Counted from the first letter of the stretch, positions 25 through 4,794 are shown. The stretch: DNA of 4,794 bases from a virus (IMGVR_UViG_2648501669_000016:1-4794); one strand, 5' to 3'. Numbers and translations are program-made. The notes: generated by a model from the letters alone, not told the origin.

Positions 25-459
25 TCAGAATGGCGCTTCATCGTCGAATGGTGGGCGCTGGTCGTATTCATCACGGGTTGACTGCTGCGCACGTCTCAGC
101 GCGTCCGTCGCCTGTCCCCGCTGGCTATTTTTGCCTCCCTGTCGCACCGTTCGCGCACTGATTACGCTGTCTGCGATAACCTGCCAGCCCTGCCGCGTTT
201 CGCCGTTCTGGCCTGTCCACTGGTTCACCTGCATGTTACCCGCCACGCTCACAAGGTCGCCTTTGTGGTGCTTTGCCAGTGCGTCGGCCTGTCTGCCAAA
301 GGCAGTTACGGCAAGCCATAGCGTCGCCTGCCCGTCGTCTGCGTTATGGCACGGCACTGATACCGCCATGCGTGCCAGCGTCATGCTTGTGCCTTTGCTG
401 GTCTGTTTTACCTGCGGCTCGTCCACCAGCCGCCCGTATGCTGAAATTTGTGCTGTCAT
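25..459 (-). CDS. ssb: Single-stranded DNA-binding protein (SSB family, OB fold plus acidic C-terminal tail)
   Basis: The translation matches the SSB pattern: GRL..EP near the N-terminus, W-x-x-V-x-x-FG...KG..V.V.G.....WT.Q.G..R in the OB-fold core (LWLAVTAFGRQADALAKHHKGDLVSVAGNMQVNQWTGQNGETRQGW), and a C-terminal tail PPFDDEAPF resembling the canonical SSB tip DDDIPF. The stop codon is TGA at 27..25. The start is placed at ATG 459..457, which overlaps the upstream ORF stop as TAATG; an in-frame GTG at 468 is an alternative start (the ORF track runs 25..468). Confidence 0.8.
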   Translation of the reverse strand: MTAQISAYGRLVDEPQVKQTSKGTSMTLARMAVSVPCHNADDGQATLWLAVTAFGRQADALAKHHKGDLVSVAGNMQVNQWTGQNGETRQGWQVIADSVISARTVRQGGKNSQRGQATDALRRAQQSTRDEYDQRPPFDDEAPF

Positions 460-668
460 TAAGCGCACTCCATTCTTGATAACGTGTCGTCAATATTCCC
501 AGCGGCTCGTTTCAGGTAGTCCATGCTGTCATTTAGTCGGGATAATTCGCCAGCCAGTAACAAGGCCGCCGCCTCCTGCGCGGTGAACCCCTGCGCTTCA
601 ATCTCTCTAACAACTTCGATCTGCTTTTTATGATGTTCGTTCATTTTTTCGCCCTTTAGCTGAATCAT
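459..668 (-). CDS. Small hypothetical protein (61-69 aa) between the iteron region and ssb; function unknown
   Basis: An ORF on the same strand as ssb, with its stop TAA (461..459) overlapping the ssb ATG (TAATG), which suggests translational coupling. There are two candidate starts: ATG at 668 preceded by a G7 run, and ATG at 644 preceded by AAGGGCG with about 6 nt spacing. The translation (MNEHHKKQIEVVREIEAQGFTAQEAAALLLAGELSRLNDSMDYLKRAAGNIDDTLSRMECA) has no motif I can assign. Confidence 0.5.
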   Translation of the reverse strand: MIQLKGEKMNEHHKKQIEVVREIEAQGFTAQEAAALLLAGELSRLNDSMDYLKRAAGNIDDTLSRMECA

Positions 669-694: not shown

Positions 695-700
695 TGTAAT

Positions 701-946
701 ATCCCTACCAATCCCTACCAATCGATAAAACCCATATGTGGCGCGGCTTTCAGGCTGGTAGGGCATTGTTTTTCTACCCCTACTTATCCCTACCTATCCC
801 TACCAAATACCAAAAAACGGTTATGCGTGGCTTCTTGTTTAGTAGGGATATGTAGGGATATGTAGGGATAAATATATATATCCCTACCAGTCTACAAGCC
901 CCGTCATTACTGGCCTTAAATGACTTTGTAGGGATAGGTAGGGATA
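701..946. repeat. Iteron array; putative origin of replication (ori / cis replication region) of the element
   Basis: Direct-orientation ATCCCTACC copies at 701-709, 711-719, 786-794, 796-804 and 880-888, with a partial copy at 777-783. Inverted-orientation GTAGGGAT copies at 842-849, 852-859, 862-869, 928-935 and 938-945, with a degenerate ggtagggca at 757-765. The tandem copies are spaced 10 bp apart. An AT-rich aatatatata sits at 871-880 between inverted and direct copies. The block is non-coding and lies immediately 3' of the primase-helicase stop at 960-962. Confidence 0.75.
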
Positions 947-959
947 AATCAGGGGTAAA

Positions 960-3416
960 CTATTCATCACCCCCTTCGGCGGTGCTGCTGCCATATGCTC
1001 GCGGTATAAACTCCTCCGCCAACTCATTGATCCCAACGTTCGTCTGCGCTCTGCCGTTAATGCTGCGTGTCAGGTAGTTAGCCCTGTATTCTCTGGCGGC
1101 TGATTTAATCGCCCGTGAGAACTTGTTGACGGAAAGCGGCTTCCCTAGCCCGTGATATTCCATAAAGGCCAAATAAAGGTGATACAGGTAAGTTCTCGGC
1201 TCTGGCTGTCCTGCCCACGTTCCTCCCCCCATCATCATTCCCTTCGGCTCGTTCATAAAATACAAGGCCGCGCACATGTCTATGACCGGATCTGTCCCGC
1301 GCTTAACGCCCAACGCCTCTGCGGAATCGCGCTGCTCGATTAAAAGCGCTTTAGCTTTGTTCTGGTCGGCAAACATTGCCAGCAAGTGACGAATAATTAC
1401 CGGCATTTCACGGCAGATCTTCGCTGTCAGGTCGGGGTCTTTCTCCGCTTCTGATACCGGATTATCGAACGGGAATATCACACGGCGGCGGGCAATGCCC
1501 CCGTTGCGCTCGGTAAAGGTCATTGGTTCGTTGTTGGTTGCGAGAACAACGGCATTTAGCACGGTGGTGAACTGCTTTTCATACTTACCATCAATCTCTA
1601 CTGGGTCGCCGCCTGTAATGGCCTTTATCCCTGCGCCTTCGCCAACATAGCGGGTCTGGTCTGGCATGATAATCAGGCTTTTTCCTACAAGCTGCGCCCG
1701 CCCTCTGGCTGTGTCTAGCGCTCCCATGCTGGCGCTGGCTGTGTTGTGCTCACCTGCCAGTGATACGGCTATGCTGCTGAATACGGATTTCCCACTGCCG
1801 CCCTCGCCAGTTATCTCAATGAATAGCTGCCAGTCGTGACGCTTCGCCAGCACCATAAACAAGGCTGCTTTGATACGCTCGGCCTTATGATGGTCGCCAG
1901 CCGTTGCATGATTCAGCCAACGGGTAAAATTGGGGGCGCTGGTGGTAATATTTTCCCCCGGCGCTGGCGGGGTGTAGGTGATCCCATTGTGGTTCATCAG
2001 CCAGTTACCCGGCGAATGGGCGGAAAACGTCTGCGTAGCGAGGTCATAAACGCCGTTATCAAAACCAATCAGATCCCCGCTCCGCTCACCAATTACCGGT
2101 ATTTGCAGCTTCATGGTTGCGACAACCGATTTAATCCCCTTTTCGGTGTAGTGGGCTTCGTGCTCGTCGAAAATTGCCACCATAACCCTTTCTAATTCGC
2201 TGTCTGGTAGCTTCACCCATACGCCAGATTCGTAGCAGTAAACAGTGCCACTATCTGGGTTAACCGCCAACATATCCCATCGAGATGAAAGCAACCGCGC
2301 TTTCTGGCTGGCTGCCATTTGTGCAATATCTCCGACATCGGCTTTACGGCGGGATTTACCGCCAGCAATGGCCTGTAGTTGTGGTTTCACGCATTCCCCC
2401 TGCGGCCGGTACATCGAATCGTTAATCGCAGCCGTAGCGACTTCCAGCCCGTGTTGCTGGTGGTAGTCGTTCCAGTCAGCTTTGCTGTCAGTCGGTGGCA
2501 GCGATACCCAGCCAGCCACGGATAAAGCTGCTTTCTCTGCGGCCTCCTTCCCGATGTTGGTGGCTCCGGTTTCGGAGGCTGCTGTAGGGTGGTCGTTATC
2601 TGCGGCGATAATAATTTGCGACTGCGGGTATTTCCGGCGCATTACTCCGGCAACGTGGATCAGGTTCCCGGCGTCAATTGCTGCCACTGCCAGCGCGTCC
2701 GGGCGCATCAGGTGAACAGACAGAGCGGTAGCCAGCCCCTCGGCAATTAAAACGCTCTGCGGCGATTCTGGCGCGTTTACGGCGTGATATGCCCCGCGCT
2801 TTGCTGAACCTGTCAGGAGTCGCTTCTCTCCCTGCGGTGTAATGGTTTGCGCTGCTGCCACTGCGCCGGATTCGTCCACCAGCTCCAGCAATAACGAACC
2901 ATCCGGCATAACCGGATAGTTAAACCCGGTCAGCCCTTTTGATTGCAGGTAATCAGATTCGCCCTGTGTGGCACTCTGGCGCATTCCGGCATACAGATGG
3001 GCAAACGTAGCCCTTCGCTGCTCTGCGTCCTCTGCTGCCTGTTTCTGGCGCTCCTGCTCACGCTGCTGGCGGTCGGCTTCCAGTTGCTCTCTTCTATGGC
3101 TCGCTGCCGCCGGGTCGGTTTGCGCTGCCCGGTAATCAATACCCAGCACGTCAGCGGCAAGCTGTGCCGCCTCCGTGGTGTCGCAGTTGTTAACCCGCTT
3201 GATTAAATCCAGCCCGTCACCAGCGCCACACTGGTTGCAGATAAAGCTACCGCGCCCGTTGTCGTCGAATCTGAAACGGTCTTTTCCACCACATGCAGGG
3301 CAGGGAGCATGACGGCGCGGAGAGTCAGGGACATTTATGTTCAGGCAGCCCAGCACATGAGGCCAGTTGTTTTCAGACGCACTGATAACCTGACGGATAA
3401 GATCAATGTTTCGCAT
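960..3416 (-). CDS. Primase-helicase fusion protein (zinc ribbon + TOPRIM-type primase + SF3 / P4-alpha-type helicase); replication initiator of a mobile element
   Basis: An 818-819 aa ORF. A CxxC-17-CxxC zinc ribbon (CPACGG...CNQCGAG) is encoded around 3228..3302. The primase region carries the conserved glutamate motif IAEGLATA and the acidic motif IIAADNDH. The helicase region has Walker A GEGGSGKS (nt 1785..1808), a Walker-B-like LIIMPD and an SF3 motif-C-like VLATNN. A charged E/Q/R-rich linker lies between the zinc ribbon and the primase domain. The start is placed at ATG 3416..3414; an in-frame GTG at 3419 is one codon upstream (the ORF track runs 960..3419). Confidence 0.9.
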   Translation of the reverse strand: MRNIDLIRQVISASENNWPHVLGCLNINVPDSPRRHAPCPACGGKDRFRFDDNGRGSFICNQCGAGDGLDLIKRVNNCDTTEAAQLAADVLGIDYRAAQTDPAAASHRREQLEADRQQREQERQKQAAEDAEQRRATFAHLYAGMRQSATQGESDYLQSKGLTGFNYPVMPDGSLLLELVDESGAVAAAQTITPQGEKRLLTGSAKRGAYHAVNAPESPQSVLIAEGLATALSVHLMRPDALAVAAIDAGNLIHVAGVMRRKYPQSQIIIAADNDHPTAASETGATNIGKEAAEKAALSVAGWVSLPPTDSKADWNDYHQQHGLEVATAAINDSMYRPQGECVKPQLQAIAGGKSRRKADVGDIAQMAASQKARLLSSRWDMLAVNPDSGTVYCYESGVWVKLPDSELERVMVAIFDEHEAHYTEKGIKSVVATMKLQIPVIGERSGDLIGFDNGVYDLATQTFSAHSPGNWLMNHNGITYTPPAPGENITTSAPNFTRWLNHATAGDHHKAERIKAALFMVLAKRHDWQLFIEITGEGGSGKSVFSSIAVSLAGEHNTASASMGALDTARGRAQLVGKSLIIMPDQTRYVGEGAGIKAITGGDPVEIDGKYEKQFTTVLNAVVLATNNEPMTFTERNGGIARRRVIFPFDNPVSEAEKDPDLTAKICREMPVIIRHLLAMFADQNKAKALLIEQRDSAEALGVKRGTDPVIDMCAALYFMNEPKGMMMGGGTWAGQPEPRTYLYHLYLAFMEYHGLGKPLSVNKFSRAIKSAAREYRANYLTRSINGRAQTNVGINELAEEFIPRAYGSSTAEGGDE

Positions 3417-3774
3417 CACCGTACCCCACGTGGTCTATAGCGTTTGCGATATGGCTAACCAGCATCTGCCACTTGGTTATTCCGTAATCAGTCAGCATGC
3501 CATCATTGTTTAGCCACATATCAAATTCAGCGGTTGTCGCAAGTTTCCACTTATCGCCGTGGACAGTCCTCATTGCTGGGTACATGAATGCGCAAATCAG
3601 ATCACAAACATCTGACGGCTTCAGAGATGTAGTAATGGTGCGTCCCTCTGGCGTCTGAATTGCCATTTTCTCTTCACCAGTAGAATGAAGGTTATGAATC
3701 CACACAGCACCAGCAATCTTTGCCACCTGCTCTCCGATTGCGGAGCTAAGCGCCATTTCTACATTTTCACGCAT
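3403..3774 (-). CDS. Hypothetical protein (123 aa), translationally coupled to the primase-helicase gene
   Basis: The ATG at 3774 is preceded by a strong SD (GGGAGG, 5 nt spacer). The stop at 3405..3403 overlaps the primase start by 14 nt. Same strand as its neighbours, no gaps. I recognise no motif. Confidence 0.6.
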   Translation of the reverse strand: MRENVEMALSSAIGEQVAKIAGAVWIHNLHSTGEEKMAIQTPEGRTITTSLKPSDVCDLICAFMYPAMRTVHGDKWKLATTAEFDMWLNNDGMLTDYGITKWQMLVSHIANAIDHVGYGDAKH

Positions 3775-4108
3775 GAGAACCTCCCGCTACAGTTGCGCCC
3801 ATGTCATTAACCATGCTTTGCCATATCTCACGCCCGACGTCAGTCAATCTGTCCTTAGTGACGCAACGATCAAGAAGCTCGATCCCCACGGTTTCCCACT
3901 GCGGGTAGAACACTTTCATGGCTGCCAGTGTGTAGCTATCGATCAGGCTGCGAACGCCTTTTACTCCATTGACGATTTCCACACGGACGGCCTCTCCGTC
4001 CGCATCAATCATGAAATAGTCCCCGCCGCTGGTGGAGGTAATGTGGTTATACAGTGCTGACGCATACTTATTTGCCAGCGCATTCAGTCGGAAATTTTTA
4101 GTAATCAT
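3767..4108 (-). CDS. Hypothetical protein (113 aa)
   Basis: The ATG at 4108 is preceded by GGATGGAGCC, containing a GGAG SD. Its last codons (..GGSHA, nt GGGAGGTTCTCATGCGTGA) encode the SD and start of the next gene, with an 8-nt overlap ATGCGTGA. I recognise no motif. Confidence 0.6.
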   Translation of the reverse strand: MITKNFRLNALANKYASALYNHITSTSGGDYFMIDADGEAVRVEIVNGVKGVRSLIDSYTLAAMKVFYPQWETVGIELLDRCVTKDRLTDVGREIWQSMVNDMGATVAGGSHA

Positions 4109-4118
4109 GGCTCCATCC

Positions 4119-4721
4119 TCAGTGCGTCACTGGTTCCGCTGGCATGCCGTTTTCATTCAGTTCAGCTATAAAGCTGTTGTGAAGTTCAGCAAGCGTTTCA
4201 CGACCAAATGGAGTCAGTGCTCCTTGTTCCACATCCATCATGGCTCTGTAGAAAATGATGGCGCGTTCTGTGCCAGACTCGATGCCAAAACGTTCTATCA
4301 TCGCGCCCTCAATGTTGTTTGCCATAGCGAGGCGCTCTGCTACTGGATACAGCGACATGGCGACGATGCCGTTGGAATAAACAGCCACTTCGGAAGGATT
4401 GCCAGTATCATCAATGATGCTGACAGTGCCGTTTTCCTTTCTCATTTCATTGATGAATGCTGTTGCTATCAGCCAGCGCCACATAATCACGTGATGCTGT
4501 GATGTGTAATCGAAATATCCCTGGTTGCCGCCACTGGCAATAGCGAGATGTATAAACATGCCTTCATCTGGTTTATCGTCATAATCCCCGGCATCCAGAC
4601 GATTTACGGCATCAATATATGAGACGGTCTCAACGCGTTCTGTCATGCCATCGTTGCTGCGGTACATGATGTTTACGCCGTCAGGCGTTGCTTCTGCATG
4701 GAAAGTTAAGAAATTATTCAT
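4119..4721 (-). CDS. Hypothetical protein (200 aa from ATG 4721; 211 aa if started at ATG 4754)
   Basis: A long minus-strand ORF. The ATG at 4721 has a GAGG SD 6 nt upstream and overlaps the stop of the upstream partial ORF (ATGAATAA), so I prefer it as the start. The ATG at 4754 is in frame but lacks an obvious SD. The stop TGA at 4121..4119 lies 10 nt before the next start. Function unknown. Confidence 0.6.
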   Translation of the reverse strand: MNNFLTFHAEATPDGVNIMYRSNDGMTERVETVSYIDAVNRLDAGDYDDKPDEGMFIHLAIASGGNQGYFDYTSQHHVIMWRWLIATAFINEMRKENGTVSIIDDTGNPSEVAVYSNGIVAMSLYPVAERLAMANNIEGAMIERFGIESGTERAIIFYRAMMDVEQGALTPFGRETLAELHNSFIAELNENGMPAEPVTH

Positions 4722-4794
4722 GTTTCGCCTCGCCTGAATGATTCTGTAACTCATATTTGCCCAACAATTCGTCCGCTTCCTGAATAGCTTCTGG
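4714..4794 (-). CDS. 3' end of an upstream gene running in from beyond the window edge (partial; C-terminus ..PEAIQEADELLGKYELQNHSGEAKHE)
   Basis: An open frame with no stop runs from the window edge at 4794 to TAA at 4716..4714, and that stop overlaps the downstream ATG at 4721. Only 26 codons are visible, so coding status rests on frame continuity and the coupling geometry. Confidence 0.35.
   Translation of the reverse strand, partial: PEAIQEADELLGKYELQNHSGEAKHE

Follow-up and report, generated by a model that had tools for sequence, protein, structure and literature searches.

DNA replication of phage satellite P4 is restrained by one of its own proteins, the copy-number regulator Cnr, whose gene lies within the order epsilon-orf151-cnr-alpha-crr. 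Cnr reportedly binds the alpha protein and raises its affinity for the repeats of ori/crr, by which replication is limited. The target of Cnr is reportedly the C-terminal DNA-binding domain of alpha, and overexpressed Cnr is reported to block P4 replication. The cnr family fills the interval between epsilon and alpha in 90% of P4-like satellites (PMC8628076). Another described system close to the locus studied here is EcCIMP1, a phage-inducible chromosomal island (PICI) of Escherichia coli mobilised by the P22-like phage Kapi1, for which helper-dependent excision, replication and transfer were demonstrated experimentally (Pick, Stadel, Raivio, ISME J 2025, PMC11773190). EcCIMP1 gives superinfection immunity against its helper, which was not mapped to a gene, and its counterparts of the three genes described below, orf200, orf113 and orf123, are annotated as hypothetical (PMC11773190).

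An EcCIMP1-like island with a three-gene cassette upstream of its primase

The stretch of DNA analysed (4,794 nucleotides, hereafter the window) is part of an E. coli phage satellite and represents an EcCIMP1-like PICI. The following features were assigned.

Upstream small ORF, 3′ end: 4715..4794, minus strand; 26 codons, 73 aa in full-length relatives (L003–L010, L034)
orf200: 4721..4119 (200 aa) or from 4754 (211 aa), minus strand; phrog_1515, E = 7e-48
orf113: 4108..3767, minus strand; 113 aa; phrog_37628, E = 6.5e-50
orf123: 3774..3403, minus strand; 123 aa; directly 5′ of the primase, whose start it overlaps
P4 alpha-type primase-helicase-initiator: 960..3419, minus strand; 818 aa from ATG 3416, 819 aa from GTG 3419
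Iteron field: 700..946, both orientations; GTAGGGATA in 11 copies, phased at 10 bp
orf69: 668..459, minus strand; downstream member of the replication module
SSB: 468..25, minus strand; downstream member of the replication module

The original prediction had assigned the locus to a PICI/P4-type satellite, and this was borne out by L034, a full-length element that bears the window's exact primase, adjoins proA and has the order int, AlpA, AntA, ..., cassette, primase, SSB, PerC. It carries what defines a PICI, namely an integrase, the AlpA regulator and a primase that are co-oriented within a single block of ~10–20 kb; the block adjoins a tRNA/att site and is free of structural and lysis genes of phages. 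EcCIMP1 has the same integrase and tRNA-Thr (proA) site as L034, the same three cassette genes (98–100% identity; protein identity over the cassette 95.5–98.4%) and the same left operon, consisting of AlpA, AntA, DUF4222, Ash, small ORFs and orf200-orf113-orf123. The two islands differ beyond the cassette: that of the window (~12 kb) has a full P4 alpha-type primase and orf69-SSB-PerC and is without P22 gp7/gp20/gp16-like genes, whereas in EcCIMP1 (20 kb) the primase is of the TOPRIM-DUF927 type and homologs of ejection proteins are present. Roughly one in three complete E. coli genomes matched the window somewhere, with up to 6 matching places within a single genome, indicating that co-resident satellites are common.

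Coupling of the cassette to the primase

The three minus-strand ORFs and the tail of a fourth had been described as a chain running into the primase gene, and all junctions were confirmed to be overlaps or a gap of 10 nt. The 200-aa start of orf200 agrees with alignments of homologs and with gene calls made independently. When it is used, the stop of the upstream ORF and the start of orf200 have 8 nt in common (ATGAATAA); orf200 and orf113 are separated by the 10-nt gap; orf113 and orf123 overlap by 8 nt (ATGCGTGA); and orf123 overlaps the primase by 14 nt if the latter begins at ATG, or by 17 nt if it begins at GTG. The strong Shine-Dalgarno sites claimed earlier were found as GAGGA/GGAG upstream of orf113 and GGAGG 5 nt upstream of orf123. 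In addition, neither a sigma-70-like promoter nor a terminator-like site was detected on the coding strand inside 3403–4794, which fits co-transcription of the cassette; the genes are coupled to the primase and very likely co-transcribed with it, as had been proposed. The C-terminal residues GYGD..H of orf123 are invariant yet disordered and overlie the Shine-Dalgarno sequence and start codon of the primase, which fits selection for the orf123/primase coupling.

The lower GC content estimated by hand for the cassette held upon calculation (48.6% for 3420–4794, with orf200, orf113 and orf123 at 47.8, 50.9 and 47.3%, against 55.5% for the primase and 60.1% for ssb; z = −4.1 in a two-proportion test of the cassette against the primase). 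The average of E. coli is ~51%, and the outliers are the high-GC primase and ssb genes, the cassette being near the E. coli average.

The cassette genes are conserved families in a variable slot

None of the three proteins was matched in Pfam, NCBIfam or PADLOC, and phrog_1515 and phrog_37628 are groups of unknown function. This absence of family annotation, together with occasional disrupted copies (L007, L025, P0020), is what could make the ORFs look like chance open frames or decaying pseudogenes. Selection analysis ruled this out and left it a negligible probability: dN/dS against cross-species homologs was 0.09–0.16 for orf200 and 0.10–0.26 for orf113, with synonymous sites saturated in these comparisons, length is conserved over hundreds of homologs from many genera, and the AlphaFold model of orf123 is confident (pLDDT 88.9). 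We collected 551 homologs of orf200, forming 142 clusters at 50% identity, and 133 homologs of orf113; both are widespread in Enterobacterales. Thus the genes are not the orphan cargo suggested earlier, being widespread, under purifying selection (orf200 and orf113) and, all three, present in the published EcCIMP1.

Across 37 satellite loci, which represent more than 10 genera, the paralogs were always located directly 5′ of the primase in the order 200, 113, 123, usually with overlapping stop and start codons. Any subset of the three genes occurs across elements with the order kept constant, so that the slot is variable between related elements as had been expected. orf123 is sporadic, and wherever present it lies directly 5′ of the primase and overlaps its start. 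Each gene is dispensable in nature, as exemplified by an IS-disrupted orf200 (L007) and a partly deleted orf113 (L025). An invariant cassette or equal GC content had been named in the original prediction as grounds for abandoning it, and neither was observed.

Relatives of orf200 were also found in the early-left operons of 36 phages without alpha-type primases. phiP27 (L06, phrog_1515), Stx-converting phages and Klebsiella prophages encode full-length homologs (31–37% identity, E = 1e-21 to 1e-33). In these phages the gene lies between the repressor and xis/int, not beside a primase, and replication is of the O/DnaC/DnaB type; phiP27 and the Stx phages have no alpha-type primase.

Distant homology to P4 Cnr

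The orf200 protein is acidic (pI 4.5, net charge −18) and has two domains, an N-terminal one of ~75 aa and a C-terminal one at residues ~76–186 (nt ~4164–4496). By hhalign with a diverse profile, the C-terminal domain was aligned with P4 Cnr/ORF106 over 91 columns (Cnr 9–101) at a probability of 93.3% and P = 2.8e-7; the score of 43.1 compares with 11.1 ± 1.9 (maximum 17) for 100 shuffles of Cnr and with 9–12 for six unrelated small proteins used as negative controls. DUF5375 (PF17345), which P4 ORF106 matches at 210.9 bits, was the sole recurring precomputed Pfam match among the orf200 homologs listed (3 of 120) and was weakly matched by 2 of 66 diverse homologs (E = 0.16). None of the three window proteins reached the PF17345 gathering threshold or gave a match at E ≤ 1, and 0 of 25 close orf200 homologs matched the model. 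All three have therefore diverged from P4 Cnr beyond Pfam's DUF5375 model. The earlier statement that no family can be recognised thus stands for the Pfam, NCBIfam and PADLOC searches and falls with profile comparison.

The two smaller proteins were related to each other and to orf200. The orf113 and orf123 families were aligned over 91 collinear columns, nearly full length (hhalign P = 8.9e-5, score 31.5 against a null of 12.2 ± 2.4), and their HMMs cross-match reciprocally as the first non-self matches (E = 9e-5 to 3e-3). orf113 was aligned with the orf200 family at P = 1e-3, and a merged orf113+orf123 profile with the orf200 C-terminal domain at P = 5e-6 and a probability of 86% (score 36.8 against a null of 11.2 ± 2.2, reached by 0 of 80 shuffles), with the same order of predicted secondary structures. 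Direct comparison of orf113 and orf123 to single-sequence Cnr was not significant; these two are thus connected to Cnr transitively, via the orf200 C-terminal domain. In size, orf113, a single domain, and orf123 are near to Cnr (106 aa), whereas orf200 adds the N-terminal domain and a beta-hairpin insertion. From these alignments, a single small Cnr-related domain appears to have given rise to all three proteins as diverged copies.

A ubiquitin-like (beta-grasp) identity of orf123 came from phmmer and profile matches of residues 33–101 to ubiquitin (~12–15 bits per copy; E = 0.2–2 for mono-ubiquitin, the very low E-values of poly-ubiquitin merely summing the repeats). The protein does not have the beta-beta-alpha-beta-beta-beta order of a beta-grasp fold; this very improbable identity is effectively refuted.

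Synteny with P4 and exchange of the replication module

The position of the cassette is also that of cnr, directly 5′ of an alpha-type primase-initiator and between epsilon/Ash and alpha: the P4 order epsilon-orf151-cnr-alpha-crr corresponds to Ash...orf200-orf113-orf123-alpha homolog-iterons in the window, with the iteron region 3′ of alpha in both. The primase (Zn_Ribbon_Prim, Toprim_3, D5_N, DUF5906 and Pox_D5 domains) shares 38% identity with alpha of P4 across 822 aa (E = 2e-172). GTAGGGATA occurs 13 times in the window against 0.55 expected, and the iteron field lies within an intergenic region of 44% GC downstream of the primase, syntenic with P4 crr; these repeats are likely candidates for ori/crr-like initiator binding sites. 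The differences from P4 are that P4 has one cnr gene and window-type elements have up to three tandem paralogs, that the hosts of the cassette are AlpA-type PICIs without sid, delta or psu, and that the cassette also accompanies primases with a helicase half unrelated to alpha.

The last point became apparent in comparisons of closely related islands. The cassette is 99–100% identical to that of EcCIMP1-type islands, and identity drops to 76–79% exactly at the primase start, indicating that the replication module is the swapped partner. Judged from these identities, the mosaic breakpoint lies at the primase 5′ end, and the replication module, not the cassette, is what was exchanged. Hence, the GC step does reflect mosaicism as predicted, with the acquired part assigned to the opposite side. 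At 99–100% identity, the same cassette was found with three primases (D5_N/DUF5906, 818 aa; DUF5906, 783 aa; DUF927, 918 aa), which have unrelated helicase/DNA-binding halves and only the N-terminal primase domain in common (76–87% identity).

Possible functions of the cassette

We give about an even chance to the reading that the cassette consists of tandem, distantly homologous Cnr-like paralogs which, in a primase-coupled early operon, tune replication of the island. In this reading the cassette lies within an AlpA-controlled early operon, between an Ash/epsilon-like gene and the P4 alpha-type primase, and its products share a small domain predicted as helix, beta-hairpin, long helix and helix. 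Its translation is coupled to that of the primase, and the paralogs, by analogy with P4, may bind the primase/initiator of their island and, once the latter has been induced, modulate replication that starts at the neighbouring iteron origin. It is from this analogy that we infer physical contact with the primase as well as the direction in which replication would be affected. Against a Cnr-like role, sharing of the cassette by unrelated helicase halves is awkward if the target is the C-terminal domain of alpha, and the occurrence of orf200 relatives in lambdoid phages without alpha-type primases is a real caveat; moreover, each cassette gene is individually dispensable in nature.

A possible, though rather unlikely, reading takes the three proteins as generic early-operon accessory factors of temperate phages and satellites that serve to take over the host or the helper, to interfere with the helper or to counteract defence. 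Their location before the primase would then only reflect the single-operon layout, and their Cnr homology a binding scaffold in common but not a common function. It accommodates the orf200 relatives in the 36 phages, the combinatorially variable slot with dispensable single genes, and the indifference of the cassette to the helicase module that follows, and could draw on the unmapped superinfection immunity of EcCIMP1. DNA-mimic anti-restriction proteins are strongly acidic, as is orf200. However, PADLOC gave only noise-level matches (E = 0.02–0.04), no match was obtained to ArdA, Ocr, KlcA-type or other anti-restriction Pfam families, and the order and tight primase coupling are fixed across genera. 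The accessory and defence hotspots of PICIs are reportedly situated elsewhere, downstream of the modules for replication and packaging. Since the cassette combines homology with a characterised replication regulator and the same syntenic position, and matches in the defence library are absent, replication control is favoured over helper interference or anti-defence, which the original prediction had listed along with regulators; it is more probable that the genes regulate replication than that they are exotic cargo directed against phages. The prediction had also conceded that confident matches of all three proteins to ordinary regulatory genes of known satellites would undo it, and the Cnr relationship comes to this in spirit.

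It is improbable, by our estimate, that the Cnr-like paralogs are instead trans-acting replication-incompatibility weapons against the alpha-type initiators of rival satellites, the copies in lambdoid/Stx phages then being counter-measures that stop replication of satellites parasitising those phages. Such a role would agree with the block of P4 replication by overexpressed Cnr, with homologs in phages lacking an alpha-type primase of their own, with the frequent co-residence of satellites (up to 6 window-matching places per E. coli genome) and with a paralog number that varies independently of the resident primase class. It is purely inferential, however; the set of paralogs was not found to correlate with the class of primase, for or against, and coupling to the resident primase is simpler under cis regulation.

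Islands of the EcCIMP1 type and related elements are very abundant, yet the genes that lie between their Ash and primase genes carry the annotation 'hypothetical' throughout. The island family was already known from EcCIMP1; what is new here is the Cnr link by profile-profile comparison, which offers a testable replication-control role for these satellite gene families. With cis replication control as the preferred reading, the P4 epsilon-cnr-alpha-crr architecture would extend to AlpA-type PICIs hijacking P22-like phages, and the regulator would have expanded into a variable tandem array of paralogs, the make-up of which does not depend on the helicase module. Should the paralogs have different target specificities, they could decide whether co-resident satellites are compatible with one another, or satellites with phages. 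As a minor observation on annotation, some of the phage homologs of orf200 are mis-labelled as '2-polyprenylphenol hydrolase'.

Organisation of the cassette and its neighbours

The genes of the window, all on the minus strand, are arranged in transcription order as follows.

Features of the window
4715-4794, minus: final 26 codons of a small ORF ending at 4715, first in transcription order
4721..4119, minus: orf200 (alternative 211-aa start at 4754)
4108..3767, minus: orf113
3774..3403, minus: orf123
3416/3419..960, minus: primase, 818/819 aa
between primase and orf69: intergenic region, 291 nt, 44% GC
668..459, minus: orf69
468..25, minus: SSB, last in transcription order

Re-examination of the junctions gave the same chain of overlapping or closely spaced ORFs as originally described: the small ORF overlaps orf200 by 8 nt (ATGAATAA), orf200 and orf113 are separated by 10 nt with GAGGA/GGAG before orf113, orf113 overlaps orf123 by 8 nt (ATGCGTGA) with GGAGG before orf123, and orf123 overlaps the primase gene by 14 or 17 nt. 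No promoter-like or terminator-like site was found on the coding strand inside the cassette. The predicted coupling to the primase holds. The 200-aa start of orf200 was favoured by homolog alignments and independent gene calls. Pfam, NCBIfam and PADLOC gave no credible match to the cassette proteins, just as no family had been recognised by eye; in PHROGs, orf200 and orf113 belong to phrog_1515 and phrog_37628, both without assigned function, and the search with orf123 gave no match.

The full form of the small upstream ORF (window 4715-4794; 8482-8703 in the 98-kb contig L034) is a conserved 73-aa protein, and 61% of P4-like satellites are reported to have, in the epsilon-alpha interval, a family of ~75 aa with no assigned function (PMC8628076). 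The acidic, 69-aa orf69, which at its 3' end runs 10 nt into the reading frame of the 147-aa SSB, gave no match in a family search and accompanies the identical primase in 4/4 contigs bearing it.

The island is related to EcCIMP1

The window is the entire contig JRQF01000185.1 (4,794 bp). An identical primase protein is encoded on three other contigs, one of which, L034, shows the complete island adjoining proA, in the order integrase, orf251, AlpA, AntA, DUF4222, three small ORFs, orf200-orf113-orf123, primase, orf69, SSB, PerC, orf125 and PRiA4_ORF3. This organisation is that of EcCIMP1, a PICI at tRNA-Thr/proA for which excision, dependence on AlpA and transduction by P22-like phage Kapi1 have been demonstrated (Pick et al., PMC11773190), and confirms the satellite context. 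In EcCIMP1 (strain MP1), orf200-orf113-orf123 likewise directly precede the primase, with 95.5-98.4% protein identity to those of the window; they are hypothetical both in Pick et al. (PMC11773190) and in RefSeq. Past their primases, the EcCIMP1-type islands (L003-L011, L030, L032-L033) have genes homologous to those for the P22 ejection proteins gp7, gp20 and gp16, which is unusual in a satellite otherwise without structural genes, together with a DUF2824 gene, whereas the window's island lacks all four and has orf69-SSB-PerC instead.

The cassette and the replication module are joined by recombination

Computed GC rose from 48.6% in 3420-4794 to 55.5% in the primase and 60.1% in ssb (cassette versus primase, z = −4.1), in line with the difference first counted by hand. 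Cassette GC is near the E. coli average. Compared with eight E. coli islands of EcCIMP1 type, the cassette DNA was 97-100% identical, but identity dropped to 76-79% exactly at the primase start, and no alignment was obtained beyond ~nt 2366, the distal two-thirds of the primase; the primases of these islands are 918-aa TOPRIM-DUF927 or 783-aa TOPRIM-DUF5906 proteins. The reverse pairing, a window-type primase (identity up to 99.7%) with a different cassette, was found in strains Br_190 and 19-5. Because of this break and the reverse pairing, the GC step is a recombination joint at the orf123/primase junction (3403-3419), and the exchanged part is the replication module. The predicted mosaicism holds. 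The start of orf123 (ATGCGTGAA) resembles that of the primase (ATGCGAAAC), and this likeness may provide microhomology through which orf123 is gained or lost.

Probable kinship of the cassette proteins with each other and with P4 Cnr

A C-terminal motif common to the cassette proteins, L-T-x-x-G-[RI]-[ET]-x-[WL], led to profile comparison. In hhalign, orf113 and orf123 aligned over almost their full length (score 31.5, P 8.9e-5, 91 columns; column-shuffled null 12.2±2.4, maximum 20.2, 0/60), and their plain HMMs were each other's first non-self match among all ORFs of 37 satellite loci (E 9e-5 to 3e-3). A diverse orf200 profile, built from 65 representatives out of a search of 1.84 billion proteins, matched orf113 with P ~1e-3 and the merged orf113+orf123 profile with P 5e-6 and probability 86% (null 11.2±2.2, 0/80).

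The window primase is a full-length homolog of P4 alpha (38% identity, 822 aa, E 2e-172). The P4 gene immediately before alpha is ORF106, annotated DUF5375, and among the matches listed DUF5375 was the one recurring precomputed Pfam match of orf200 homologs (3/120). P4 ORF106 matched the diverse orf200 profile with probability 93.3% and P 2.8e-7 over 91 columns (Cnr 9-101 versus orf200 76-186), scoring 43.1 against 11.1±1.9 (max 17) for 100 shuffles and 9-12 for six unrelated small proteins; direct comparison of orf113 and orf123 each with the single Cnr sequence was not significant. The C-domain of orf200 is thus very probably homologous to Cnr, judging from sequence profiles, and orf113 and orf123 likely belong to the same superfamily. 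ORF106 is cnr, which governs copy number in P4's plasmid stage, and the cnr family occurs in the epsilon-alpha gap of 90% of P4-like satellites (PMC8628076).

Downstream of the primase, 700-946 contains 11 phased copies of the 9-mer GTAGGGATA/TATCCCTAC, with 10-bp phasing and clusters in both orientations (13 matches in the whole window versus 0.55 expected). Its position past the primase mirrors that of P4 crr, and it is probably the alpha-type initiator's iteron field (ori/crr-like).

Distribution and variability of the cassette

The orf123 DNA was found in 252 of 5,426 complete E. coli genomes, and the orf200-orf113 region in 610, with both genes in 302 of these; the window-type helicase half (at least 80% coverage) was found in 78. 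The cassette slot is combinatorial with strictly kept order.

Arrangements of the cassette slot
200-113-123: window, EcCIMP1, A20, Escherichia sp. L016
200-113: Br_190 and eight loci (Scandinavium, Enterobacter, Kosakonia, Lonsdalea, Klebsiella, Cedecea, others)
200 alone: Nord122, Kluyvera, Shimwellia, Atlantibacter, Enterobacter
113 alone: strain 19-5
123 alone: Serratia, Citrobacter

In every arrangement examined the last paralog adjoins the primase. The expected variability between related elements was observed, as any of five paralog subsets in fixed order. In L007 (7868-9180) an IS3-family element interrupts orf200, and in L025 (5747-5914) orf113 has lost an internal segment; the two islands are otherwise intact, and these natural knock-outs suggest that the cassette genes are individually dispensable. 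Both orf200 (dN/dS = 0.09-0.16) and orf113 (0.10-0.26) are under purifying selection, and an artefact reading of the cassette genes was rejected.

True phages also carry homologs of orf200 (36 genomes, 31-37% identity, including phiP27, Stx-converting phages and Klebsiella prophages) and of orf113 (two genomes), placed in the early-left operon with the repressor on one side and xis/int on the other. phiP27 and one Stx phage examined encode O/DnaC/DnaB-type replication proteins, not an alpha-type primase. In the Klebsiella prophages (records H47-H52), the orf200 homologs are annotated '2-polyprenylphenol hydrolase (related flavodoxin oxidoreductase)'; family scans of them gave no support for the hydrolase label, which looks like a propagated mis-annotation. 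Modules of orf200-orf113-primase-SSB with 58-65% protein identity occur in a Chryseobacterium sp. 18061 contig (L024) and Elizabethkingia phage EKP1 (OM284015); these Enterobacterales-type modules under Flavobacteriia labels may reflect contamination or mislabelling, not real cross-phylum transfer.

Proposed role of the cassette

From the Cnr homology, the P4 synteny and the known role of Cnr, the best-supported reading is that the cassette would be a tandem array of Cnr-like modulators targeting the island's primase/initiator, with translational coupling fixing the ratio of modulators to primase. Terzano et al. in 1994 and Ziegelin et al. in 1997 are said to have found that Cnr binds alpha and stimulates its binding to the ori/crr repeats, and that excess Cnr inhibits replication. 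The orf123 C-terminus, invariant yet disordered, lies over the ribosome-binding site and start codon of the primase gene, which fits selection on coupling to the primase. Functional equivalence with Cnr itself stands at even chances or slightly below. Three unrelated helicase/DNA-binding modules are tolerated next to the cassette, and orf200 relatives occur in phages without an alpha-type primase; both observations speak for a target other than the C-terminal domain of alpha, or for broader roles of the family. A generic early accessory role, in interference or anti-defence, would sit with the early-left position of the phage copies; set beside the Cnr homology and the adjacency to the primase, it is plausible but less likely. 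A trans-acting incompatibility role is less probable still.

While its satellite context, coupling, mosaicism and variability stood, the original prediction of undescribed cargo gives way to what appear, from profile comparison, to be duplicated, divergent proteins related to a known regulator of satellite replication, within a known PICI family; Cnr and the PICI family were known, and the duplicated relatives are what is added here. The result offers a useful lead on the function of hypothetical genes that are abundant, and would not surprise specialists unless the paralogs mediate inter-element competition.

Residues 33-101 of orf123 (window 3403-3774) resemble ubiquitin (GRTITTSLKPSDV versus GKTITLEVEPSDT; DGMLTDYGI versus DGRTLSDYNI), weakly but over the full length (12-15 bits per copy); a ubiquitin-like identity was rejected because the predicted fold is not a beta-grasp. 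For orf200, only secondary-structure order was used because the structure model was poor (pLDDT 53); the protein is very acidic (pI 4.5).
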